From contig JBAZWW010000001.1 of NCBI GenBank assembly GCA_041660165.1, forward strand, positions 169,035 through 233,034: 64,000 bases of DNA. The letters are read 5' to 3'. The position numbers and the translations under genes are program-made. Shown here in pieces: positions 1,170 to 60,197 of the stretch; within the stretch, counting starts at the first letter, position 1; every line of letters starts with the position of its first letter. Origin of the DNA: Patescibacteria group bacterium. Lineage in GTDB: Bacteria; Patescibacteriota; Patescibacteriia; UBA9934. Under the pieces are notes generated by a model that saw only the letters and a list, made by a program, of their open reading frames with translations, had not been told where the DNA came from and did no database searches.

Positions 1170-1925
1170 ATGCTTGTCTTTGCCGGCTTCATCCCGCATT
1201 CTCCGCTCCTCATGGAGAGCGTAAACACAAAGCGCCTTCATGAGGCAGACAAAACGCTGTCCGCGCTTGATGCGTTTGCTGATGAACTCTTCACAGCGCG
1301 TCCCGATACCATTGTCATTCTGGCTGAAAGCCCCACCATGTATGAGGACGCTTTTTCTCTCAATGTTGCGGATCCATTCACGGCGGATCTCTCGGCGGTG
1401 GGAGATCTTGGCTATCACAAAACGTATCACCCAGACTTTGGCTTTATTGATAGCCTGCAAAGATTCGCCCGCCAAAATAACGTTCCCGTTTCGCTTTCTA
1501 CGGATGAGCATCTGCCGTTTCAGACAACCGTCCCCCTGCATTTTGCCACTCGTCATCTCAAAGATGTCCGGGTCGTCCCCATCGCTCCCTGCAGTCTGGA
1601 CGGTAAGGCGCATTTTGCGTTCGGTAACACGCTTAAGCATTTAGTCATGGATAGTAACAAACGAATCGCAGTCATCGCCTCCGGTGACATGTCCCATGTT
1701 GAAGATGCAGTTTTTGACGAGCGTCTGCTCACCATCCTCAGGGAACATAACGCCTCCGGACTACTCCAGCTTGATCCTGATCTGATTGCAGGCGCAATAG
1801 ACACGTCCTACCGGCAAATCGCCATGCTCTTTGGCGTGCTTGATGGCGTTGGTACCACAGCCGAAGTGCTCAGCTATGAAAAACCTTTCGGCGCTGGTTT
1901 TGCGGTCGTGAACTTTATCCTGTGA
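1170..1925 (+). CDS. LigB-family (class III extradiol dioxygenase / MEMO1-like) protein
   Basis: An ASGDMSH motif (SxDxSH, typical of the LigB/MEMO fold) and DEHLPFQTTVPLHF. No radical-SAM partner is nearby. Confidence 0.5.
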   Translation: MLVFAGFIPHSPLLMESVNTKRLHEADKTLSALDAFADELFTARPDTIVILAESPTMYEDAFSLNVADPFTADLSAVGDLGYHKTYHPDFGFIDSLQRFARQNNVPVSLSTDEHLPFQTTVPLHFATRHLKDVRVVPIAPCSLDGKAHFAFGNTLKHLVMDSNKRIAVIASGDMSHVEDAVFDERLLTILREHNASGLLQLDPDLIAGAIDTSYRQIAMLFGVLDGVGTTAEVLSYEKPFGAGFAVVNFIL

Positions 1926-3718
1926 TCGCTGAAGTGTTTCCTAATCTTCGCCTCCCCCGCCGTTTTTCTTTTTTCGATTACAAAATTCCTGATTCAATGA
2001 CGGTTGCTGTTGGCGACCTGGTGGCGATTCCATTCCGCGGGCGCGAAATCATTGGTCTGGTTGCGCACACAAAAGAAACGTCCGCCGAGCGCAAGCTTTC
2101 ACAACTCGCAAACGTAGTCCACCGAAGCTGGTGCGAACCTGAGGACATCGTCCGCCTAGAAACCATCGCTCGCGCCATCGTGCAATCCCCCGCCAGCCTG
2201 TTTCACGGAATTTTCGATGGGGTAGGAACAAGTGATGCAAAACAAAATTACATAAGACTCTTATATAATTCGCTATCCGTAAAAAAAATTGACGTAGAGC
2301 AAGTGGGCGAGATCTTAAAATCCCCCGATCGAGTCCAGACCGTTTTCGGCGACAAAGTCCTCGGGGCAGTACTCGCAAGCGCGCTCGTCAAAACAACAAC
2401 GGGACAGTGTCTGTTCCTCGTCCCCACTGAAAAGGACGCGAAGGATCTGCAAACGGCTATCAAGTCCTCGGTTGTCTATCACGGTCACATTAAACCGAGG
2501 GACCGAGCCAGCATCGCTCGCGCCTGGCATGAGGGCAAGATCCGCATCCTTGTCGGCACGCGCGGAGCCTCACTCATCCCCGCGCATGAGCTGTCCGCCG
2601 TTGTCGTGCTCGACTCTGCAAACGACGAGCATGCCAGCACTCGCCGTAACCCGCGGTTTGACGCCCGCGAAGCCGTTAAACTACTGGCCTCCCAGCACTC
2701 CGCTCGCCTCTTCTTCGTGGATCCCCTCCCCCGGCTCGAAGAGCTCGCTCCCAGTCTCCCCGCCGTACGGGCGAGGCTCGCCTCGCCCCCTTCATTCCAG
2801 ATCATCGATCTCCGCAACGCTCTCCTCAGATCCGATGATCCCCTCTTAACCGAGCCCCTGCTTGAAGGCATAGAATCCGCTTTACAGAGCGGAAAAAAAG
2901 TGCTACTTTTTCTCAATCGCAAGGGCGTAGCCAAGCGTCTCCAGTGCGGAGCCTGCGGGCACATTCCCCTCTGCGGAACCTGCGGGAACGTTCCCTCCGT
3001 CAGGCTCGATGACCTGGTCTGCGATAGATGCGGAACAGAAATGTGGATCCCTAAAAATTGTCCAGCATGCGGAAAAGCAAAACTGGCCATGAAGGGCATA
3101 GGCGGAGCCAAGATTGCCGAGATCTTGCGCACACGGTTTTCTGACGCCACCGTTGGGCAAATCGAGAAGGGAAAAATTGAAAATCCCTACGCTCCCATCG
3201 TCATTGTCACCGAGTATTTCTTCAGCTCATTCCTTGATCCTTTCAAACACCTGAATCTTGGCCTAGTGGCCGACCTGGCCGGAGACATGGGCATTCACGG
3301 CGCGGACTTTCGCGGGGCCGAGAAAACCGCGCGCAAGTTGCATCGGTTACTCGCCTTCGCCAAACGCGAGAACGCCAACTGCATCTTGCAGACCTGGCTT
3401 CCTGATGTTCTGACGCCCATGTTGAATCTCGATACATTCATCAAAGACGAGCTCGAACTCCGTCAGCGCTATCAGCTCCCGCCGTTCTCCTCAAGATACG
3501 TCCTCGAAGGCGCCAAGATTGGAGAGCTCCCCGAAGCCCTGCGATCAATCGCCCGCGAACATGATGAAACAGTTGAAATTCGACCCCTCGTCACCTCGGG
3601 GTGTGATCCAACCCCTTCTAACCCTTTATCACCCTCTCTAACCCTCCTCCCAGATTCAGTGAAAATCACCCTCGATGGCCCCTATGAAATCCCTCCCCGT
3701 TCTCCACAACCCGAATAA
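1922..3718 (+). CDS. priA: primosomal protein N' (PriA)-like, helicase motifs degenerate
   Basis: The N-terminal 3'-DNA-binding domain (FDYKIPDSMTVAVGDLVAIPFRGREIIGLV) and the PriA Cys4-Cys4 zinc motif (CGACGHIPLCGTCG...CDRCG...CPACG) are present. The Walker A position reads ALVKTT instead of GxGKT. GTG start overlapping the upstream stop (GTGA). Confidence 0.6.
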   Translation: MIAEVFPNLRLPRRFSFFDYKIPDSMTVAVGDLVAIPFRGREIIGLVAHTKETSAERKLSQLANVVHRSWCEPEDIVRLETIARAIVQSPASLFHGIFDGVGTSDAKQNYIRLLYNSLSVKKIDVEQVGEILKSPDRVQTVFGDKVLGAVLASALVKTTTGQCLFLVPTEKDAKDLQTAIKSSVVYHGHIKPRDRASIARAWHEGKIRILVGTRGASLIPAHELSAVVVLDSANDEHASTRRNPRFDAREAVKLLASQHSARLFFVDPLPRLEELAPSLPAVRARLASPPSFQIIDLRNALLRSDDPLLTEPLLEGIESALQSGKKVLLFLNRKGVAKRLQCGACGHIPLCGTCGNVPSVRLDDLVCDRCGTEMWIPKNCPACGKAKLAMKGIGGAKIAEILRTRFSDATVGQIEKGKIENPYAPIVIVTEYFFSSFLDPFKHLNLGLVADLAGDMGIHGADFRGAEKTARKLHRLLAFAKRENANCILQTWLPDVLTPMLNLDTFIKDELELRQRYQLPPFSSRYVLEGAKIGELPEALRSIAREHDETVEIRPLVTSGCDPTPSNPLSPSLTLLPDSVKITLDGPYEIPPRSPQPE

Positions 3719-8903: not shown

Positions 8904-9467
8904 TTAGAAGGCTACGTTCACGTTCTGCTTTTCCTTCTCCTCGGCCCCAAAGAACTCGCCGGTCTTGAAACCGAGCAATGGAGCGATGATGTTCGAGGGG
9001 AAAACCTGCACCGCATTATTCATCTCACGCACCGTGGCATTGTAGTAACGACGAGCAGACTGAATGTCGTTTTCGAGAGAAGAGAGCTGTTCCTGAAGCT
9101 GTTTGAAATTTTCCGAGGCCTTGAGGTCAGGATAGCCCTCGGCCACTGCAAACAAGCTCTTGAGTGCGCCGGACAACATCGTTTCCGCTTGTGCTCGGCC
9201 AGCAATCGCTCCAGACGGAACGCTCATAGCGTTCGAGCGAGCCTTAGTCACTTCTTCGAGCACCGAGGACTCATGCGCTTTATAACCTTTTACGGTTTCG
9301 ACCAAGTTCGGCACAAGGTCATAACGTCGTTTTAACTGCACATCAATGTCTGACAGCGCGTTCTTCGTTCTGTTTCTGTAGCTCACAAGCTTGTTAAAGA
9401 TGAGCACAATCCAGCCAAGAATCAGCACCCCAACCACTAAAATAAGAATAGGCATATTGTCTGTCAT
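8904..9467 (-). CDS. lemA: LemA family protein
   Basis: N-terminal TM helix, then ALSDIDVQLKRRYDLVPNLVETVKGY, the conserved LemA core. Confidence 0.88.
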   Translation of the reverse strand: MTDNMPILILVVGVLILGWIVLIFNKLVSYRNRTKNALSDIDVQLKRRYDLVPNLVETVKGYKAHESSVLEEVTKARSNAMSVPSGAIAGRAQAETMLSGALKSLFAVAEGYPDLKASENFKQLQEQLSSLENDIQSARRYYNATVREMNNAVQVFPSNIIAPLLGFKTGEFFGAEEKEKQNVNVAF

Positions 9468-9545
9468 CTCGAGCGTAGCGAGAGATCTGATTGGCCGATG
9501 CCCCTGATTGCCAATTCAGATCCCTCCTTACGTCGGGATGACAAT
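9466..9545. repeat. palindromic dispersed repeat (GTCATCYYGAG...GAGAGATCTGATTGGCC family), hairpin-forming
   Basis: GTCATCTCGAGCGTAGCGAGAGATCTGATTGGCC pairs with GCCAATTCAGATCCCTCCTTACGTCGGGATGAC. Intergenic, between lemA and GT2. Confidence 0.7.
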
Positions 9546-10531: not shown

Positions 10532-11239
10532 CTACAGACCGTGTTTCCTAGCAATAATCTCTCTCGCCTCAGTGTACTTCTTTATGCTCTTTGGTTGCCA
10601 GGGCGAGTATTGCCAAGGAATCCTGTAGGCGAGTTTTGGCAGCCAGGCCGAGCCGATCCTCGATACCCCGTCAATCCGCACGTGGAAGAGAACTCCCGGC
10701 ACGAGTATCCCTCGATGCCCCCGCTCAAGCATGGTCAACCACACGTCCCAGTCTTGCAGACGCTTGATCTGCTCGTCAAACCCCGGAAAATCTGCCCGCC
10801 GAATGAGCGAGGTGGTGTGGGCAAAGTTCATCTTCCGTATCTTCTCATCACTAAACGGCGTCCCCCAAAATGTCTTCCAGCCAAACGTAAAACCAGAATA
10901 GGCATAACTGGCCTGCGGATTTTGTATAAGACTCTTATGCATTTTTTCGAGCATCTCGTTCTCCATGACAATATCCGCATCGCAAAAAATGACATACTCG
11001 CCTCTACTCTCGGCGAACCCTCGGTTCCTTGCCGGATTCGAGCCTTTATTTTCTTGACGAACAACCTTAATCTTGCCGGCGTATTTTTCGAGTACTTTCA
11101 ATGTCTCATCCGTAGACCCGTCATCAACCACAATGATTTCGATCTCCTTATATGTTTGGTCGAGTACCGAATCAATACACCCCGGCAGTGAGCCCGCGTG
11201 CTGATACGTTGGAATGATGACTGAAATAAGTGGTTCCAT
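10532..11239 (-). CDS. glycosyltransferase family 2
   Basis: ISVIIPTYQHAGSL...IIVVDDGSTDET and FCDADI motifs. Confidence 0.85.
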   Translation of the reverse strand: MEPLISVIIPTYQHAGSLPGCIDSVLDQTYKEIEIIVVDDGSTDETLKVLEKYAGKIKVVRQENKGSNPARNRGFAESRGEYVIFCDADIVMENEMLEKMHKSLIQNPQASYAYSGFTFGWKTFWGTPFSDEKIRKMNFAHTTSLIRRADFPGFDEQIKRLQDWDVWLTMLERGHRGILVPGVLFHVRIDGVSRIGSAWLPKLAYRIPWQYSPWQPKSIKKYTEAREIIARKHGL

Positions 11240-11242
11240 AAC

Positions 11243-11272
11243 CTGTTATAACCCTCTATAACCCTCTATAAC
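11243..11272. repeat. tandem 10-bp repeat ATAACCCTCT x3
   Basis: Direct tandem copies between the GT2 start and the GT4 stop. The GT4 stop codon lies inside the repeat. Confidence 0.7.
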
Positions 11273-12462
11273 CCTCTCACCATGATGATCCCCCTCAGCT
11301 TACTCGTTTGCACTTCTCTTGTGAACTGCTCCAACACTCGTACCCGTCCGCGTGATCCGAGCTTTGATCGGAGTGCCGGATTTTCTACGAGTTTCCTAAT
11401 CGCCGCCTCGATCTCTTCGATGTGGTCATTCACAAGCAACCCCGTTTCTCCGTCGAGTACCGCTTCGACAACGCCCCCAATGTTCGTCGCCACCACCGGC
11501 AAACCGAACAAATTGGCTTCGAGGTACACGATTCCAAATCCTTCGCGATCAGTTTCAGACCGAGTAGTCGGCATCACAAAAATATCCGCTGATGCATAAA
11601 TCCCTGGCAGGTCTTCATCACTCGCGTTCAGAATCATTGTTACTCGATCACTCAATCCTCGGCGAGCAATCTCGGTTTCGAGCCTCTCACGCATCGGCCC
11701 ATCACCCACAATTGTATATTTAACGCCTGGCAAATGTTCCAGTATTTCAAGCACCTTCAGGTGCCCCTTTCTCTCAACCAGCCTCGCCACCGTCAACAGC
11801 ATTATCGTATAGTTATTTACCTTGTCATCTCGACCCATTCTGTCGTCTAGACCCATTCTGTCATCTCGACCCATTCTGTCATCTCGAGCAGAGCGAGAGA
11901 TCTGATTGGTCGACAGTGAGATGGGTACCCCAAGCGCCCCGCTGGCCAGCTTCAGCAACTCTTTCAGATCAACCAGCCCCACGCCCTTCCTCACGGATTT
12001 CGACGCCTCCACAAACACATCACTCACCGGCGGGTAGACCGTCAGGATGCGCCGTAAGGGTCGAGCCATGTCTCGACCCCGTACGAACCGCTCCACCTCG
12101 CCCCTCAAAGCCTCCGAATTCGTCACGATCAGGTCAGCACCTCGCAGAATCCTCCTGGACAACCATCTCTTCCACGCATTTCGTCTGGCGAGATCAAAAT
12201 CCATGCTATGCAGGAATATGCCGTACGGACGAGAAAATATCCACGCCACCGTTCCCACTGGCAAAATATGATTCACGAAATACAGATCTGCATCTTTTCG
12301 AGACTTCCAAAAAAATGAAAATAATTCCTTGTAGCCAGGTTTCTTGGACAGCTCAACCACTTTCACCTCGTGCGGGTATGTTTCAACAACCGCCGAAAGA
12401 TAGCGGGCCACGCCTCCTCGCTCTGAAAGCGCACCAAGCATTGGAGCAATCACGCGCCTCAT
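11266..12462 (-). CDS. glycosyltransferase family 4 with repeat-derived interdomain insertion
   Basis: The C-terminal domain has EGFGIVYLEANLFGLPVVATNIGG. The linker contains RDDRMGRDDRMGLDDRMGRDDK, encoded by the tandem/dispersed repeat at 11824-11925. Confidence 0.85.
   Translation of the reverse strand: MRRVIAPMLGALSERGGVARYLSAVVETYPHEVKVVELSKKPGYKELFSFFWKSRKDADLYFVNHILPVGTVAWIFSRPYGIFLHSMDFDLARRNAWKRWLSRRILRGADLIVTNSEALRGEVERFVRGRDMARPLRRILTVYPPVSDVFVEASKSVRKGVGLVDLKELLKLASGALGVPISLSTNQISRSARDDRMGRDDRMGLDDRMGRDDKVNNYTIMLLTVARLVERKGHLKVLEILEHLPGVKYTIVGDGPMRERLETEIARRGLSDRVTMILNASDEDLPGIYASADIFVMPTTRSETDREGFGIVYLEANLFGLPVVATNIGGVVEAVLDGETGLLVNDHIEEIEAAIRKLVENPALRSKLGSRGRVRVLEQFTREVQTSKLRGIIMVRGL
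11824..11925. repeat. tandem 18-bp repeat x3 plus dispersed palindromic repeat core, inside the GT4 CDS
   Basis: GTCATCTCGACCCATTCT / GTCGTCTAGACCCATTCT / GTCATCTCGACCCATTCT, then GTCATCTCGAGCAGAGCGAGAGATCTGATTGGTCGAC. In frame, the repeat length is a multiple of 3. Confidence 0.75.
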
Positions 12463-23346: not shown

Positions 23347-23473
23347 CCGATCAAGAACGTTCGACTGCTCGTCAATTCTCGTGACCGAAGACCCCGTCCG
23401 CCCGCGCGCGAATGGGGTCGTACTGTTTTATATAAGACTCTTATTATATTAGATGCTTATATAATCCCCTCGG

Positions 23474-25413: not shown

Positions 25414-27189
25414 TTATCCGAGGATCGCCTTAATTCTCCGCACGCCCGATGACACTGCTTCTTCTTTTTGGATTTTGAATCCGCCAAGTTCGCCAGTATG
25501 TTGCACGTGGGGGCCGCCACAGATTTCTTTCGAGTAATCACCAATGGAGTAGACGTTTATCTTGCCTCCGATATTGGCGTACTTGTCCTCAAACAATCCG
25601 ATCGCACCACTAGCTTTCGCTTCTTCAACAGTCAACTGCTCAGCCTTCACGGGCATGTCTTTTTTGATCTGCTCGTTGACAATGGCCTCAACTTTTGCCA
25701 ACTCGTCCGGCGTCATCTTGGTGTTGTGCGAGAAGTCGAAACGCAAACGCTCGGCAGTAATGTTGCTGCCCTTCTGTTCAACATGGGGACCGAGAACGTC
25801 GCGCAGAGCTTGATGCAAAATGTGCGTCGCGGTGTGTAGGCGAGTTGTTTCGATGGAATGGTCAGCGAGACCACCGGCGAATTTCTTTTCGGCACCTTGG
25901 CGAGAAAGGTCCTGGTGCTTCTTGAACTCGGCAGCGAATGCTTCACGATCAACCTCTTGACCTTGTTCGTGCGCCAGCTCGTGTGTGACCTCGAGCGGAA
26001 AACCGTACGACTGGTAAAGGTTGAACGCATCCTCGCCGGAAATTGCCTTGTTGCGCTCGAACATCTTCTGGAATTCCCTCAGTCCTTGGGCGAGTGTCTT
26101 CTCAAATTTCTTCGCCTCAGTTTCTATGCCGAGAACTATCGCGTCTCGTTTTTCGATCAGCATTGGATACGCCTCGCCGAGGGACGCCACAACATCATCA
26201 ACAATCGGCGGAACGAGCTTGTCGGATTCGATGCCCAGCTTCTTCGCGTGACGGATCGCCCGGCGGATGAGACGACGCAGGATGTAACCCTGGTCCTTGT
26301 TTGATGGCTCGACACCATCCATAAACATGATCGAGGAAGCTCGAAGGTGATCGGCGATGATCCTCATTGACTTGGTTGTCTCCGGCGCTGCGCCATATTC
26401 CAAACCGGATAAATACATAAGAGTCTTATGTAATCCGGTGAACAATTCCGTCTCGTATACATTCGCGCGGTGTTGTAACGCAACGATCGTGCGTTCCATG
26501 CCCATACCGGTGTCCACACTGCCGTTTACAAGCGGGGTTAAAACCCCGCCTTCGTCCTTGTTGAATTGCATGAACACGTTGTTCCAAATTTCCATCCAGC
26601 GATTGTCTTTTGGATCGTAAACTGCTGGCGGTTCTTCAGCACTGGTCCAATAAAAAATCTCCGTGTCCGGTCCGCACGGACCAGTTTTCCCCGCTGGTCC
26701 CCACCAGTTGTCCTCGCGGCCGAGTTTTGCAATGCGCTCGACGGATACGCCAAGACGAATCCAATGATCGTATGCCTCTTGGTCAAATGGCGTGTTCGCG
26801 TCGCCTTCGAAAACTGTAAATGACAAATGCGATAACGGGATGTTGAGCCAATCCTTGCTCGTCAAAAACTCGAATGACCACTCGATAGATTCTTTTTTGA
26901 AATAGTCGCCGAGCGACCAGTTGCCGAGCATGGTGAAAAAAGTGAGGTGCGTGTTATCACCCACGTCATCAATGTCGCCGGTTCTGATACAGCGCTGGTA
27001 ATCAACCAAGCGCTTGCCCGCCGGGTGAGGCTCGCCGAGCAAATACGGGACGAGCGGATGCATGCCCGCCGTGGTAAAAAGCACAGTCGGATCATTCACC
27101 GGCACCACGGAGGCGGAGGGAATCTCCACGTGGCCCTTCGATTTGAAAAACTCAATGTACTTTTTGCGGAGCTCATTCGCGGTGATCAT
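25414..27189 (-). CDS. alaS: alanine--tRNA ligase, short form lacking the C-terminal C-Ala domain
   Basis: MITANELRKKYIEFFKSKGH, FTTAGMHP and GNWSLGDYFK in the catalytic core, and the editing-domain HTATHIL...CGGPHV. About 590 aa from the proper Met. Confidence 0.9.
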   Translation of the reverse strand: MITANELRKKYIEFFKSKGHVEIPSASVVPVNDPTVLFTTAGMHPLVPYLLGEPHPAGKRLVDYQRCIRTGDIDDVGDNTHLTFFTMLGNWSLGDYFKKESIEWSFEFLTSKDWLNIPLSHLSFTVFEGDANTPFDQEAYDHWIRLGVSVERIAKLGREDNWWGPAGKTGPCGPDTEIFYWTSAEEPPAVYDPKDNRWMEIWNNVFMQFNKDEGGVLTPLVNGSVDTGMGMERTIVALQHRANVYETELFTGLHKTLMYLSGLEYGAAPETTKSMRIIADHLRASSIMFMDGVEPSNKDQGYILRRLIRRAIRHAKKLGIESDKLVPPIVDDVVASLGEAYPMLIEKRDAIVLGIETEAKKFEKTLAQGLREFQKMFERNKAISGEDAFNLYQSYGFPLEVTHELAHEQGQEVDREAFAAEFKKHQDLSRQGAEKKFAGGLADHSIETTRLHTATHILHQALRDVLGPHVEQKGSNITAERLRFDFSHNTKMTPDELAKVEAIVNEQIKKDMPVKAEQLTVEEAKASGAIGLFEDKYANIGGKINVYSIGDYSKEICGGPHVQHTGELGGFKIQKEEAVSSGVRRIKAILG

Positions 27190-36780: not shown

Positions 36781-37641
36781 CTATTTCCCAAATCTTCTCT
36801 GTCTCGCCTGGAACGAACGCAACGCTCGCAGAAAATCAATTCGCCGAAAGGCCGGCCAATTCACGTCGAGAAAATAATACTCGCTGTACGCCGCCTGCCA
36901 AAGGAGGAAGCCGGAGAGACGAACCTCGCCGGACGTACGAATGATGAAATCGGGATCGGGGACATTGCAGGAATAAAGATTGGCCGAGAGTGACTCCTCG
37001 GTCAAACCATTAACCGCCTCGCCGAAAGACTTCCCTGACTGTTCAGCACTCGTCAGATACGCTTTGGCTGCATCCACGATCTCCTCGCGACCGCCGTACC
37101 CAAGAGCGAGCTGGACGAGCATGCCTTTTCTCTCGGCGGTAGTTGTTTCAAGTTCGGCAAGTGCTCGTTGTACTTCTTCGGGCATCTGCTCGGTCCGGCC
37201 AATCACCTTCACACGAATGTCGTGCTTCTTGAAATCCTCGTCCAACATCATGGCCTTGGCTTGCTCGACAATTATATCCATCAGCGCTTTCACCTCAGAC
37301 GGCTCGCGCGAAAAATTCTGCGTGCTGAAACCCCAGACAGTAACCACGGGAATCTTAAATTCGATACACCACGAAAAAAGCTGTTTCACTTTCTTCGCCC
37401 CGTATTTATGGCCCTCGACAATTGGCAGACCAAGAGACTTGGCGTATCGCCTGTTGCCGTCAAGAATTACGCCGAGATGCCGTGGCGCAGGACCAAGCAA
37501 CAATTTCTGTGCCAGCCGACGCTCGTACACCTCGTACAAGATTCTTTTAACAATTGCTTTGGGAATATTTTTCATAAATGCACCATAAACGCGAAAGGGT
37601 CGAGACATGGCTCGACCCCTACGCCAAACATCCTTACACAT
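36781..37641 (-). CDS. uppS: isoprenyl transferase (undecaprenyl diphosphate synthase)
   Basis: HLGVILDGNRRYAKSLG and IIRTSGEVRLSGFLLWQAAYSEYYF motifs. Confidence 0.85.
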   Translation of the reverse strand: MCKDVWRRGRAMSRPFRVYGAFMKNIPKAIVKRILYEVYERRLAQKLLLGPAPRHLGVILDGNRRYAKSLGLPIVEGHKYGAKKVKQLFSWCIEFKIPVVTVWGFSTQNFSREPSEVKALMDIIVEQAKAMMLDEDFKKHDIRVKVIGRTEQMPEEVQRALAELETTTAERKGMLVQLALGYGGREEIVDAAKAYLTSAEQSGKSFGEAVNGLTEESLSANLYSCNVPDPDFIIRTSGEVRLSGFLLWQAAYSEYYFLDVNWPAFRRIDFLRALRSFQARQRRFGK

Positions 37642-37647
37642 CGACTC

Positions 37648-38424
37648 TTACACCTTCAAGGCCTCTGGGCGCATGGCTGTCAGCTTGCGGTAAATGTATG
37701 CAAAGCCGAAGACATAAACCATCACAAAAGCACAGTATGCAACAATGCTGGCAATTCCGAGGAGAAGGAACAGGATGGTTCCAAGGATCGCCACAATCTT
37801 CGTGACGAACATAGCAACCGTTGCCAAGATCATCATCGCAACTCCCAAAGCCATGCCCAAGCCAACAACTGCCAGAAGGTACCAGAACATATTCATGCGG
37901 TTGCCTTCCGTCAAAGCCATGCTGGCTTTCATGGCATCAATTGGCGAGAGTTTCTTCTCAACAGCAACAAATGGCGCGTAGCCAAACATGAGGGCAGCAA
38001 TGATTCCTGGAACAACAAACAACACGGAGCCGATACCAACCACGATTGCAAGCAGGATCAAGATCGCCACCATGTATGCCACCTCCAGCCAGCTGGAAGT
38101 GAAAATAGCCTGGAGCGAAACTTCCTTCCCGTCAACCGCGTTCAACGAAAGGCGCACAATAGCAATCACGGCAATTCCCTCCCAAGCAAGGTTCAAAAGG
38201 AAAAAGACAAACTGGAAAATGGAACTGTGAATCGCCCCGCCAACGGCACTCAATAAACCACTGACAACGGCAATCCCAATAATGGCCAAAACATAGCTTA
38301 CCCAATACTTCTGCGTCACTTCCCAACCCTTATCAAGCACCTCTTTCACGGTAAACGCTTGCTTGGCACCTGCGGATGAATCCATAGTATGGGTTATGAT
38401 TATTGCCGGCATAGTATCATACAT
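37648..38424 (-). CDS. hypothetical polytopic membrane protein
   Basis: 6-7 TM helices; no motif recognised. Confidence 0.45.
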   Translation of the reverse strand: MYDTMPAIIITHTMDSSAGAKQAFTVKEVLDKGWEVTQKYWVSYVLAIIGIAVVSGLLSAVGGAIHSSIFQFVFFLLNLAWEGIAVIAIVRLSLNAVDGKEVSLQAIFTSSWLEVAYMVAILILLAIVVGIGSVLFVVPGIIAALMFGYAPFVAVEKKLSPIDAMKASMALTEGNRMNMFWYLLAVVGLGMALGVAMMILATVAMFVTKIVAILGTILFLLLGIASIVAYCAFVMVYVFGFAYIYRKLTAMRPEALKV

Positions 38425-40459: not shown

Positions 40460-40465
40460 AGAGCA

Positions 40466-40551
40466 TTGTCATCTCGAGCTTAGCGAGAGATCTGAATTGG
40501 CCGACCAATCAGATCTCTCCTTACGTCGGGATGACACAATAATTATGACAA
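40466..40551. repeat. palindromic dispersed repeat copy
   Basis: GTCATCTCGAGCTTAGCGAGAGATCTGAATTGGCCGACCAATCAGATCTCTCCTTACGTCGGGATGAC, just upstream of the thioredoxin-like gene start. Confidence 0.7.
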
Positions 40552-42950: not shown

Positions 42951-42990
42951 ATATTATATAAGATACTTATATAATAAGAGTCTTATATAT
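42951..42990. promoter_or_regulatory. AT-rich palindromic element containing ATAAGAGTCTTAT, upstream of the MarR gene
   Basis: TATATAAGATACTTATATAATAAGAGTCTTATATAT. A paralogous element lies at 47141-47183 upstream of dus, and a related one at 23428-23465. Confidence 0.45.
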
Positions 42991-43038
42991 TCCTCCCTCT
43001 AAGTATCTCCTTTCGTTATTCTCCTTATTCCCTTCTCT

Positions 43039-47133: not shown

Positions 47134-47172
47134 TCTTCGAAATTTATATAAGTATCTAATATAATAAGAGAC

Positions 47173-48141
47173 TTGTCTATTATGGATCTCGATTGGAAAT
47201 CCCTCCCCCGCCCGATTATCGCCCTTTCCCCCATGGCTGACATGACGGACTCGGCTTTTTGCCGTTTGGTGAAAAAACTCAGTGGAGTTGACGCACCGGT
47301 TGTGTTTCGCGAGATGGTGTCGAGCGAGGCCGTAGTTCGCGGGAACGAAAAAACCCTCGGCATGACTGCCATTCATCCCGACGAGAGACCGCTCGTTCAA
47401 CAAATCTTCGGTTCAGATCCCTCAACGATGGCGGAAGCCGGTAGAATTATCGAGGCCGAGCATCACCCCGAAGGCTTTGATATCAACATGGGCTGTCCCG
47501 TGTACAAAATCGTCCACAATTTTAACGGCGCAGCGCTCATGAAGGATCCCGCCCTAGCCGGCCGAATTATCGAAGCAATGAAAAAGGCCATCACCGTTCC
47601 CCTCTCCGTGAAAATCCGCCTTGGCTGGTCAGACCCCCGCGAGTGCCTCGAGTTCGTAAAAGTACTCGAAGAAGCTGGCGCTGATCTCATCACCATTCAT
47701 GGTCGAACAAAAACCCAAGGTTACTCCGGCGTGGCTGACTGGGCCATGGTTGGCGAGGCAAAAAAACAAGTGAAGATTCCCGTGCTTTGTAACGGCGACG
47801 TTCATACCGCCGAACGGATCGTCGAGGCTCTTAAAGTGTCCGGCGCTGACGGCGTCCTAATCGCTCGTGGCGCCCTTGGCAACCCCTGGATCTTCCGCGA
47901 CTACGCCCTGCTGGCCAGGGGCGAGACTCCGCCCGTCATCACACTCGAAGAACGCATCAGAATAGTGAAACGGCACCTCGACCTACATCTCGAAGAGTAC
48001 GGCGACCACGGTGTCCACACCTTCCGCAAGCATCTCTCTTGGTACTTCAAAGGTCTTCCTGGCGCCAAGGCATATAGAGACCCCATGATGCGGGCTAATA
48101 CAAAGGACGAGCTGCTGAAAATATTAAATGAGGTAAAATAA
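47173..48141 (+). CDS. dus: tRNA-dihydrouridine synthase
   Basis: IALSPMADMTDSAFCRL and DINMGCP motifs. Confidence 0.85.
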   Translation: MSIMDLDWKSLPRPIIALSPMADMTDSAFCRLVKKLSGVDAPVVFREMVSSEAVVRGNEKTLGMTAIHPDERPLVQQIFGSDPSTMAEAGRIIEAEHHPEGFDINMGCPVYKIVHNFNGAALMKDPALAGRIIEAMKKAITVPLSVKIRLGWSDPRECLEFVKVLEEAGADLITIHGRTKTQGYSGVADWAMVGEAKKQVKIPVLCNGDVHTAERIVEALKVSGADGVLIARGALGNPWIFRDYALLARGETPPVITLEERIRIVKRHLDLHLEEYGDHGVHTFRKHLSWYFKGLPGAKAYRDPMMRANTKDELLKILNEVK

Positions 48142-58143: not shown

Positions 58144-59856
58144 TTACAAAACCTGTCCGCCAAAAGCCTCAACCAAAGTATCAACGGGATTTGTTTCTTC
58201 TTTGCCTTTTTCAAGGACGCAGACAATGGCCTTGGGCATGGCTTGCATGACGTTGCCAATGGCTTCTTGGAGGAGACGGATGGCTTTGTGCTCTTCCATG
58301 GCCTTAACATGAAACATGTAGGATAGGCTGATGGTCAGTGTGTCTCCGTCAATCGCTACCGGCTTGGACGAGTTCAAGATCATCGGTAGGGACATGTTGC
58401 GCTCAGCCACGTAGGCACAGCAACGGCCCCATTTTTCTTGGAGGTCGGCGAGAGTGAAGGGGAGGGTTAGAGAAGGTGATAAAGGGTTAGAAAGGGTTTG
58501 ATCCACCCCGACGACAGGAGGGGTAGCCTTGGTGCTATCAATGGGAGATGGTGGAAGATCGAAATCGGACGTCTGGAAAGCGCTTGCCGGCTCTGGAATC
58601 GGTGGTCGAGAGACTGGGATTGAGGCGATAGGCATTGGCTCGTTTCCTCGCCCCGCTAGGGGAGCCTCGCCCGTAGGCTGCAGAGGGCTGCGGCCGAGGG
58701 AGGGCAGGAGAGGGGCTGGTGGGATGGGAGCGGATTGAACGGCGATAGGAGCTACGGGGGCGCTCGAACAGGTCTCGACAATTGCGATCTCCAGTGGCAA
58801 CTGCGGAATCGAGCTCAAACTTGGCCGAAATCTTGCCGACAACATTAAGTCGAGAAACCGGCGGTGATCACTCGCAGTTCCGAGCTTGGCTGTCTCGGCT
58901 AATCGCTTGAGCGTGCCGGGATCGTATTCCTCGTTGCTCGAGAACCCGAGAGACGCGAACATCATAGTCCGCACGTACTCAAGAATCTCATCGAGCAGAT
59001 GACGAACGGATCCGCCCTGCTCAACAAACTCGTCTAATATTCGCAACGCCTCCGGGGCGTCTTTTTTGGTAACAGCCTGAACCAACTCAACCACAATTTC
59101 TGTGTGCGTTGCCGGCAAAATAATCGAGGCCTCCTTCTCAGTCACGGTTTTCTCACCGAGCGCAAATAGCTGACCGAGCAAACTCTCAGCATCACGCAAA
59201 CAGCCTTCGGATAGTCGAGCAATAGAAACGAACACCGACGGCTCAACCGCCACGCCCTCAGCTTTCGAGATTGTTTCGAGTCTCTCGATCATCTCTTTCG
59301 GCGGAACTCGATGAAAATCAAACCGCTGGCAACGCGAAATAATGGTCGCCGGAATTTTGTGAAGCTCGGTGGTGGCGAGAATAAAAACTACGTGCGCCGG
59401 CGGTTCTTCAAGCGTTTTCAAGAGCGCGTTGAAACTTCCCGTCGAAAACATGTGCACCTCATCAATAATAAAAACCTTGAACTTCCCACGCGACGGGGCG
59501 GTCCGAACATTCTCGATGATGTTTTCTCTTGTTTCATCCACCTTCGTCTGGCTAGCGGCATCGATCTCAATGATGTCCATCATTCGTCCTTGTTTCGTTT
59601 CAAGACAAGACCAGCAGGTATTGCACGGCTCACTCTGTCCAGCTTGCCTAGTCTCGCAATTCAAAGCCTTGGCGAGCAATCTCGCAATGGTCGTCTTACC
59701 CACGCCTCGCGGACCCGCAAACAGATACGCATGCGCCACACTCCCCTGCGCCAGCTGGTTCGTTACGGTGCGCACCACATGTCCCTGTTCCGCCACCTCG
59801 GCAAAGGTATTAGGTCGGTATTTTCTATACAGTGCTTCGGCCATAGTATGTGTCAT
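58144..59856 (-). CDS. dnaX: DNA polymerase III subunit gamma/tau
   Basis: YRPNTFAEV, GPRGVGKTT, the Cys4 zinc module and domain III. The proline-rich linker includes the repeat-derived SNPLSPSLTLP. Confidence 0.9.
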   Translation of the reverse strand: MTHTMAEALYRKYRPNTFAEVAEQGHVVRTVTNQLAQGSVAHAYLFAGPRGVGKTTIARLLAKALNCETRQAGQSEPCNTCWSCLETKQGRMMDIIEIDAASQTKVDETRENIIENVRTAPSRGKFKVFIIDEVHMFSTGSFNALLKTLEEPPAHVVFILATTELHKIPATIISRCQRFDFHRVPPKEMIERLETISKAEGVAVEPSVFVSIARLSEGCLRDAESLLGQLFALGEKTVTEKEASIILPATHTEIVVELVQAVTKKDAPEALRILDEFVEQGGSVRHLLDEILEYVRTMMFASLGFSSNEEYDPGTLKRLAETAKLGTASDHRRFLDLMLSARFRPSLSSIPQLPLEIAIVETCSSAPVAPIAVQSAPIPPAPLLPSLGRSPLQPTGEAPLAGRGNEPMPIASIPVSRPPIPEPASAFQTSDFDLPPSPIDSTKATPPVVGVDQTLSNPLSPSLTLPFTLADLQEKWGRCCAYVAERNMSLPMILNSSKPVAIDGDTLTISLSYMFHVKAMEEHKAIRLLQEAIGNVMQAMPKAIVCVLEKGKEETNPVDTLVEAFGGQVL

Positions 59857-59861
59857 CCTGA

Positions 59862-60160
59862 GACCTATCTCTGTGTCATCTCGAGTCCCGTCCGACGGGA
59901 CGAGAGATCTAATTGGCCGTCAGTTTCTCCAGCATCTTATGTCGATCTAGCATAAAAGACAAACCACTCACCCCCACCCTTTTCCCCTCAATAAATGAAA
60001 ATCAGATCTCTCGGCCTTCAGACGGCCTCGAGATGACAAGAGCTGACCGATCCACCAATTCTACCCCTCCTATCGTCGGGGTAGGACAGCCTGAATCGGC
60101 CGATCAGATCCCTCGGGCGTAGCCCTACGGGCGAGCCTTCGTTAGCGCTCAGGATGACAC
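59862..60160. repeat. cluster of two or three palindromic dispersed repeat copies between dnaX and the VirD4-like gene
   Basis: GTCATCCTGAGACC..., GTCATCTCGAGTCCCGTCCGACGGGACGAGAGATCTAATTGGCCGTCAG, and the reverse-orientation copy ...GCGCTCAGGATGACAC at 60120-60160. Confidence 0.65.
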
Positions 60161-60197
60161 TGAAACTCGAAAAGACAGCAACAGTCACCCAAAGACT

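Follow-up and report, generated by a model that had tools for sequence, protein, structure and literature searches.

Two replication genes of one bacterium, priA and dnaX, carry nearly the same short piece of DNA inside their reading frames, and the question raised by this locus is whether two proteins share a peptide or two genes share a repeat. Both genes lie in a 64,000-nucleotide stretch of contig JBAZWW010000001.1 (assembly GCA_041660165.1) from a Patescibacteria group bacterium, uncultured and close to Uhrbacteria, and their products match NCBI protein entries (MFA5945455.1 and MFA5945515.1, locus tag WC802_00895) of a metagenome-assembled genome. This whole stretch, referred to below as the window, has a GC content of 52%, and the GC skew of its plus strand is negative throughout. 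An initial annotation described a sequence of ~36 nt common to the two genes and attributed it to a DNA-level element rather than to protein homology. The similarity is at the DNA level, and the shared stretch is composite, consisting of a hairpin plus a decamer array. On balance, the composite is best regarded as a short repeat that both proteins tolerate, in frame, within variable segments outside their domains, and that is probably homogenised by short-tract gene conversion.

A DNA stretch shared by priA and dnaX

The two host genes are the following:

1922-3718, plus strand: priA-like gene, an open reading frame (ORF) of 598 aa that hosts copy 1
58144-59856, minus strand: dnaX (DNA polymerase III gamma/tau), an ORF of 570 aa that hosts copy 2

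The names given to both genes in the initial annotation are borne out by their Pfam domains. The 1922-3718 product contains the 3'-DNA-binding domain PriA_3primeBD (E = 1.5e-9), and its orthologues carry the name primosomal protein N'; the 58144-59856 product contains DNA_pol3_delta2, AAA, lid and domain III, the last of which ends at aa 366. The 32-mer TTCTAACCCTTTATCACCYTCTCTAACCCTCC occurs exactly twice in the window, at 3616-3647 on the plus strand and at 58461-58492 on the minus strand (0 occurrences expected from 100 shuffles), and the pair forms the longest inverted repeat of the window (43 nt, 93%). Gapped alignment of the priA and dnaX copies gives 52 nt at 92% and, when extended, 65 nt at 88% (3583-3647 versus 58461-58524, E = 8e-15), a match that ranks second in strength among the dispersed repeats of the window. 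Sharing in the same coding orientation, as first described, is therefore real, but its length was understated: the stretch is about twice as long and begins ~20 nt further upstream. Each copy lies on the coding strand of its host ORF, and translation of the two ORFs yields ...SNPLSPSLTL(L)P in both, as had been proposed. An artefact of assembly is excluded, since a second assembly matches over 29.6 kb without a difference and each copy recurs in an independent sample, that of priA in L013 (sample ERZ27247924) and that of dnaX in L003.

The clearest evidence that DNA rather than protein is shared comes from a 1-nt indel just upstream of the decamer array (TCGGGGTGTGAT versus TCGGGGTG-GAT). Nucleotide similarity continues across this indel although the reading frame changes, and the same DNA is read S-G-C in PriA and V-G-V in DnaX; protein homology cannot yield such a pattern. 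The alternative of a low-complexity proline/serine/leucine linker, homologous or convergent, with nucleotide similarity as its by-product, draws on the location of the two segments, each in a variable region outside the domains with much P, S, L and T. The change of frame inside the stretch is enough to refute this explanation, and identical codons at synonymous sites count against it as well, so that hardly any probability attaches to it. Searches of protein collections point the same way. When 1.84 billion representative proteins were searched exhaustively with a 30-aa slice of DnaX, only a chance match to a Calx-beta repeat came back, so the stretch is not a common proline linker, and a word-indexed search of 5.8 billion proteins with a 56-aa concatenate, a search of low power, gave 66 word-sharing candidates, none with E <= 10.

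Neither coding copy falls within a domain recognised by Pfam; the segments that hold them differ between orthologues in both length and sequence. In DnaX the element spans aa 444-465, between the end of domain III and the conserved C-terminal region; it runs straight into the conserved PFTL (466-469) that opens this region, and the surrounding linker is unalignable among orthologues. In PriA it lies near the C-terminus between the conserved EIR and LLPDSVKITLDGPY motifs, where orthologues are shorter and different. The segment is absent from every PriA orthologue that lies beyond the 90% cluster. Among 11 DnaX orthologues it is found in one, P0002 (69% identical; JGI 3300013232, contig Ga0170573_10512355, locus L003), which has TLSNPLLPSITL at the same position, whereas P0003-P0006, closely related to it, differ in sequence at that point. 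Because the underlying nucleotides of the L003 dnaX segment are also the same, the possibility that relatives encode a common proline linker with different nucleotides does not hold. Together with the synonymous matches, the indel and the protein searches, this sparse distribution supports the DNA-level character originally proposed.

The L003 gene is informative in a further respect. Over its whole length, L003 dnaX is 82% identical to that of L004 and 68% identical to that of the window, but in the patch containing the element this relation is reversed, with 88-90% identity to the window as against 22-39% to L004. This patch also takes in the flanking PFTL codons, where it has the synonymous codons of the window and not those of L004. 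Between window and L003, 12 of the 14 codons for the same amino acid in the patch are identical, compared with 49% gene-wide (P = 0.005); the arrays are identical at 36/42 positions; and in conservation the patch comes 6th among 540 sliding windows, on a par with the Walker A region. The dnaX segment thus has either a more recent common history than the surrounding gene or a constraint at the DNA level. No further composite copy is present in the rest of the 21.7 kb of L003.

As listed, the ORF of def (peptide deformylase) begins within the 3' end of priA, with a 44-nt overlap at 3675-3718. This start is ~30 nt downstream of the priA repeat and has no obvious Shine-Dalgarno-like sequence.

Hairpin module and decamer array

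The composite can be divided into a hairpin (module A) followed by an array of decamers (module B). The copies in the window, and the related non-coding features, are listed below:

3583-3604, plus strand: module A of copy 1, a diverged hairpin (CG)ACCCC-TCGTCACCTC-GGGGTGT, read P-L-V-T-S-G-C
3605-3647, plus strand: module B of copy 1, GAT followed by TCCAACCCCT, TCTAACCCTT, TATCACCCTC, TCTAACCCTC and C, read D-P-T-P-S-N-P-L-S-P-S-L-T-L
58502-58534 (hairpin 58505-58526), minus strand: module A of copy 2, CACCAAGG-CTACCCC-TCCTGTCGTC-GGGGTGG, read T-K-A-T-P-P-V-V-G-V
58461-58501, minus strand: module B of copy 2, T followed by CAAACCCTT, TCTAACCCTT, TATCACCTTC, TCTAACCCTC and C, read (D)-Q-T-L-S-N-P-L-S-P-S-L-T-L
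60053-60088 (hairpin 60061-60082), plus strand: module A alone, intergenic, upstream of dnaX among other hairpin repeats, CACCAATT-CTACCCC-TCCTATCGTC-GGGGTAG-GACA
11238-11277, no strand assigned: non-coding array of one degenerate and three perfect TATAACCCTC units, which takes up the space between a family 4 (GT4) and a family 2 (GT2) glycosyltransferase gene

Module A is the hairpin CTACCCC-N10-GGGGTRG, with a 7-bp stem and a 10-nt loop in all six copies, two priA copies included; in the intergenic copy at 60053-60088 the stem is 9 bp. The priA hairpin (CGACCCC-N10-GGGGTGT) is a diverged member that aligns with the hairpin family. The dnaX hairpin is identical to the intergenic sequence at 60053-60082 at 27/30 positions and to copies upstream of dnaJ at 25/27, trailing GGAT included. 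These last are two inverted copies 45 nt apart, ~3.5 kb past the right edge of the window (L015 2259-2364). Overall, the 78 kb of window and flanking sequence holds four good copies and one diverged copy, mostly intergenic. On the bottom strand a GTAG end is present (GGGGTAG) in the dnaX copy, the intergenic copy and both copies upstream of dnaJ, and is degenerate (GGGGTCG) in the two priA copies. The intergenic copy folds with modest stability (9-bp stem, -13.3 kcal/mol, z = -2.3).

The dnaJ gene is annotated here with 377 aa, as against 349-351 aa in relatives, and its extra N-terminus crosses one of the hairpins. It reads ATPPHVGVD, near the DnaX peptide ATPPVVGVD. The dnaJ start codon has probably been called too far upstream.

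Module B consists of four degenerate 10-nt units (unit TCTAACCCTY) after GAT. Tandem Repeats Finder (TRF) reports period 10 at 3613-3646 in priA and at 58463-58498 in dnaX. The initial annotation had also noted a threefold tandem repeat near 11243-11272 that supplies the stop codon of the GT4 gene, and such an array exists: TRF gives TATAACCCTC x3.1 at 11247-11277 with 100% matches. GT4 and GT2 both lie on the minus strand; the array contains the TAG that ends GT4 (complement of 11266-11268), and GT2 starts 26 nt on, at 11239. The orientation of this array relative to transcription is opposite to that of the coding copies. Its relationship to the priA/dnaX stretch, which the initial annotation had stated, is suggestive rather than proven, as the match to the priA array is 25/28 in periodic sequence (E = 1e-3). 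The likeness of GGATCAAACCCTTTCTAA to the 3' end of 16S rRNA, which the priA copy does not share, was taken as coincidence. An operator of MraZ type and a Shine-Dalgarno array were considered for the 11247 site and dropped, as no supporting gene context was found.

Whichever frame is read, a perfect decamer array contains TAA. For the frame of priA and dnaX, the triplet concerned belongs to the third unit alone, and the four coding copies read TCA, TCA, TTG and TTA there. Comparable variants of the middle unit are also found in non-coding arrays elsewhere, so the lost in-frame TAA is only weak evidence of adaptation to coding.

Such non-coding arrays, built from TAACCCTC/TCACCCTC decamers, occur in unrelated metagenome contigs (L001 6040-6123, L008 1-90, L007 612-638, L006 1200-1271 and L009 3860-3960). 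Those of L001 and L008 are palindromes of ~80 nt that abut gene 3' ends; that of L006 has at least 7 perfect units; and that of L007, between divergent genes and upstream of rpmB, is identical to the dnaX copy of the window at 29/31 positions. Their neighbourhoods have no common neighbour and no replication initiator. Pattern scans for the array, in collections that did not include the genome of the window, gave 2 unrelated genome matches, 5 metagenome matches and 0 viral matches.

Proposed gene conversion, and possible mobility or function

How the two copies came to be so alike can be addressed by comparison with PriA of L013 (P0243), from another sample, which is 90% identical to that of the window in amino acids and 84% in nucleotides. 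It has the element at the same site and of the same length, reading TLSNPLLPSITL. Between the two strains the priA element is only 75-80% identical, below the gene mean of 84%, and this faster divergence argues against strong sequence constraint in priA. In a four-copy alignment the two modules group differently. The hairpin part groups by gene, with the window PriA copy identical to L013 PriA at 20/21 positions and to DnaX at 17/21, whereas the array part groups by genome, with the window PriA copy identical to window DnaX at 39/42 positions and to L013 PriA at 31/42. Informative sites in the array number three for grouping by genome and zero for grouping by gene. This split grouping suggests short-tract gene conversion between the two loci of the window; the mechanism, the direction of copying and the neutrality of the tract are what we infer from the pattern.

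The proposed sequence of events is as follows. A piece of short repetitive DNA, a GTAG-ended hairpin like that of repetitive extragenic palindromes (REPs) with four degenerate decamers, would have come to lie in frame in two replication proteins, where it would be translated simply as extra spacer (...SNPLSPSLTL...). The two copies would then be kept near-identical by short-tract ectopic gene conversion, probably seeded at the shared hairpin and closed at CTCC(C/T)C microhomology. A like exchange between lineages, or a fresh acquisition, may have placed the array in the dnaX of a distant relative (L003). No role in replication would be needed, and the DNA would behave as tolerated, selfish or neutral.

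Several observations weigh against this account. The copy counts cover 78 kb of the genome only, and the conversion rests on three informative sites and one outgroup per gene, with L013 dnaX and L003 priA not included. The near-identity of the non-coding L007 array to the dnaX copy is more in keeping with a module that is mobile and dispersed than with duplication on a purely local scale, and conservation of the dnaX array between window and L003 at the level of the Walker A region could instead mean constraint. Moreover, REP status lacks its key correlate, the REP-associated tyrosine transposase (RAYT), none having been found in 78 kb.

Two rivals can be set beside gene conversion. The composite, or the array alone, might be an active non-autonomous element of the REP type, of the type of miniature transposable elements with inverted repeats (MITEs) or of that of Rickettsia palindromic elements (RPEs), inserted independently in priA, dnaX, the dnaX of the L003 lineage and intergenic DNA. 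Such activity would fit the occurrence of the element in two genes with no relation to each other, and that of a discordant patch in a distant genome when the nearest relatives of that genome are without it, as it would the multi-copy hairpin with its inverted dimer upstream of dnaJ, the near-identical arrays in non-coding DNA of other metagenome contigs and the further repeats of this genome that lie within ORFs. Yet only two composite copies are present in 78 kb, with none elsewhere in L003; neither target-site duplications nor terminal inverted repeats are visible in the flanks; in two genomes the dnaX copy occupies exactly the same site; and the priA copy is older than the split from the 90%-identical strain, yet closer to its dnaX paralogue. 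The array pattern is rare, no other protein family has the peptide, and no transposase was found in 78 kb: transposases, RAYT (Y1) and reverse transcriptases are all missing from the Pfam matches of the scanned window ORFs and from the annotated flank genes, some shorter ORFs having been left unscanned. An active element is accordingly less likely than gene conversion, of which it is the main rival. The word 'element' in the initial annotation remains apt for a DNA-level unit, but not in the sense of an active transposon, since gene conversion between two resident copies fits the pattern better.

A functional reading would make the decamer array a cis-element through which priA, dnaX and the glycosyltransferase operon are regulated together, be it an RNA signal or a set of 10-bp-phased sites on one helix face where a DNA-binding protein attaches. 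In its favour, the repeat has a period of exactly 10 nt, its two host genes both serve replication, synonymous sites in dnaX are conserved between genomes 68% identical overall, and the decamer unit also forms a perfect array at an operon junction and lies in intergenic DNA of other genomes. Against this, the priA copy diverges faster between strains than the rest of its gene, the array is absent from 10/11 DnaX orthologues and all distant PriA orthologues, and its orientation to transcription is opposite at the 11247 site. In addition, folding of the composite is not better than that of shuffled sequence (z = -1.5 and +0.2), Rfam 15 at gathering score finds only two tRNAs in the window and no family at the repeat, and no promoter-like or terminator-like site lies at any of the three loci. 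We regard co-regulation as improbable. Also unlikely is a proposal that the array is a module portable among Patescibacteria genomes, at coding and non-coding sites (e.g., by DNA uptake and microhomology-guided patch recombination), and perhaps kept by a protein that reads one helix face. If this were true, the TAACCCT/TCACCCT units with their 10-bp phase would equip priA and dnaX with an inbuilt signal for regulation or recombination and would not be junk.

Other candidates were tried and rejected. An RNA structure or Rfam family was set aside on the fold and Rfam results above, and a promoter of def or a terminator because no such site was found. Programmed frameshifting or slippage in dnaX (gamma/tau) would require a slippery heptamer X XXY YYZ, or a run of A, in the zero frame and a stable stem-loop after it, and the in-frame sequence GAT CAA ACC CTT TCT AAC has no heptamer in phase; the hairpin is upstream, not downstream, and is not unusually stable. 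A diversity-generating retroelement, which would have differences confined to template adenines, repeats of ~100 nt or more and a reverse transcriptase nearby, does not fit: the differences are C/A, C/T, C/T and one indel, which are not adenine-specific, the repeat measures only 65 nt, and the Pfam matches include no reverse transcriptase. Nothing indicates that the 55 kb separating the two inverted copies has been flipped, as relatives without the repeat have the same relative gene orientation.

Known repeat systems and the wider repeat landscape

GTAG-type REPs have a stem of 5-13 bp and a loop of 2-20 nt (Di Nocera et al. 2013, Table 1, PMC3733652). Their intragenic copies are notably frequent in genes of replication and repair, probably in flexible linkers, with UvrABCD, RecBCD, Pol I and error-prone polymerases among the listed hosts, and REP ends can supply TAG stop codons (PMC3733652). 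With its 7-bp stem, 10-nt loop and GTAG on one strand, the hairpin module agrees with this structure; within the 78 kb covered it is likewise present in several copies, mostly intergenic, with one inverted dimer and some copies in frame inside genes, in linkers. The differences are that the hosts here are priA and dnaX, that the phylum Patescibacteria is outside the survey (PMC3733652), that no RAYT was found in 78 kb and that the decamer array is non-palindromic and not part of any described REP, RPE or MITE. As a direct tandem of C/T-rich decamers, the array, and with it the composite, lacks the palindromic or terminal-inverted-repeat architecture of all three.

RPEs are selfish in-frame inserts in unrelated housekeeping genes that are translated and compatible with protein function (review PMC10969869). 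The composite resembles them in being in frame, and tolerated, in two unrelated genes, but RPEs are palindromic, ~100-150 bp long and present in tens of copies, whereas the composite is 65 nt long, has a hairpin in its first third only and no significant fold, and is seen in two copies in 78 kb. The 11247-11277 array, which spans the interval from one co-directional gene to the next and contributes the stop codon of the first, resembles intergenic minisatellites of the mycobacterial interspersed repetitive unit (MIRU) type. Such minisatellites lie at operon junctions and have units of 40-100 nt, in contrast to the 10-nt unit of the array. Palindromic amphipathic repeat coding elements (PARCELs) offer another parallel, in that repeat DNA and not the host gene is the unit of inheritance, with a punctate phylogenetic distribution and shuffling within genomes; PARCELs, however, are 25-residue amphipathic units in long tandem tracts of membrane proteins of unknown function, and here a single short tract lies in essential replication proteins. 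The priA/dnaX case is a real and fairly ordinary instance of short repeats inside genes, and its closest precedent is the intragenic REPs of replication and repair genes. To our knowledge, this kind of repeat phenomenon is undescribed in Patescibacteria.

Other repeats of this genome and its relatives are also found within genes. In GT4 (11266-12462, minus strand), an 18-nt tandem TGTCATCTCGACCCATTC x3.6 at window positions 11823-11913, with an adjoining hairpin copy of an intergenic family, is in frame; the two encode RDDRMGRDDRMGLDDRMGRDD in the linker between the two glycosyltransferase domains, giving RDDRMGRDDRMGLDDRMG. Further copies of this hairpin family are at 9460-9498, 40465-40503 and 59882-59920. 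The dnaX and priA genes of relatives carry other perfect palindromes in frame at different variable sites (L003 11105-11176; L012 3808-3879; L011 3811-3882), such as CCCCCTCCTT-CGA-AAGGAGGGGG, which yields PLLRKEGE, and CCTTCTTAC-GAAGAAGG, which yields PLLTKK. Judged from these GT4 repeats and from the palindromes in orthologous PriA and DnaX, in-frame repeats may be a general habit of the clade.

A 27-nt inverted repeat (96%; CGTAAGGGTCGAGCCATGTCTCGACCC) at 12053-12079 and 37597-37623 is common to GT4 and an unannotated ORF (37168-38256), forming a second intragenic-intragenic pair. The 341-nt gap upstream of dnaX (59857-60197) is dense in several hairpin repeats, of the families TGTCATCTCGAG...CGAGAGATCTGATTGG and TCAGATCYCTC...GATGACA, and resembles a cluster of REPs or bacterial interspersed mosaic elements (BIMEs). 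The AT-rich palindrome TTATATAAGAGTCTTATATAA is intergenic at 23428-23465, 42953-42991 and 47144-47181, with weaker copies inside ORFs at 2246-2271, 10920-10938 and 26411-26436, and may be a promoter or operator motif of the organism.

With priA and dnaX, two further genes join the reported tendency of intragenic REP-type repeats toward replication and repair genes, a bias that is still without explanation. The 65-nt tracts would provide a compact case of concerted evolution between unrelated genes. Patches of this kind create false local 'homology' between unrelated proteins and distort linker alignments and phylogenies, of which the L003 dnaX patch is a clear example, and they may be of use as markers of strains. 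Short repeats, selfish or neutral, thus persist even in genomes as small and streamlined as those of Patescibacteria, where they can lie inside essential replication genes and be translated.

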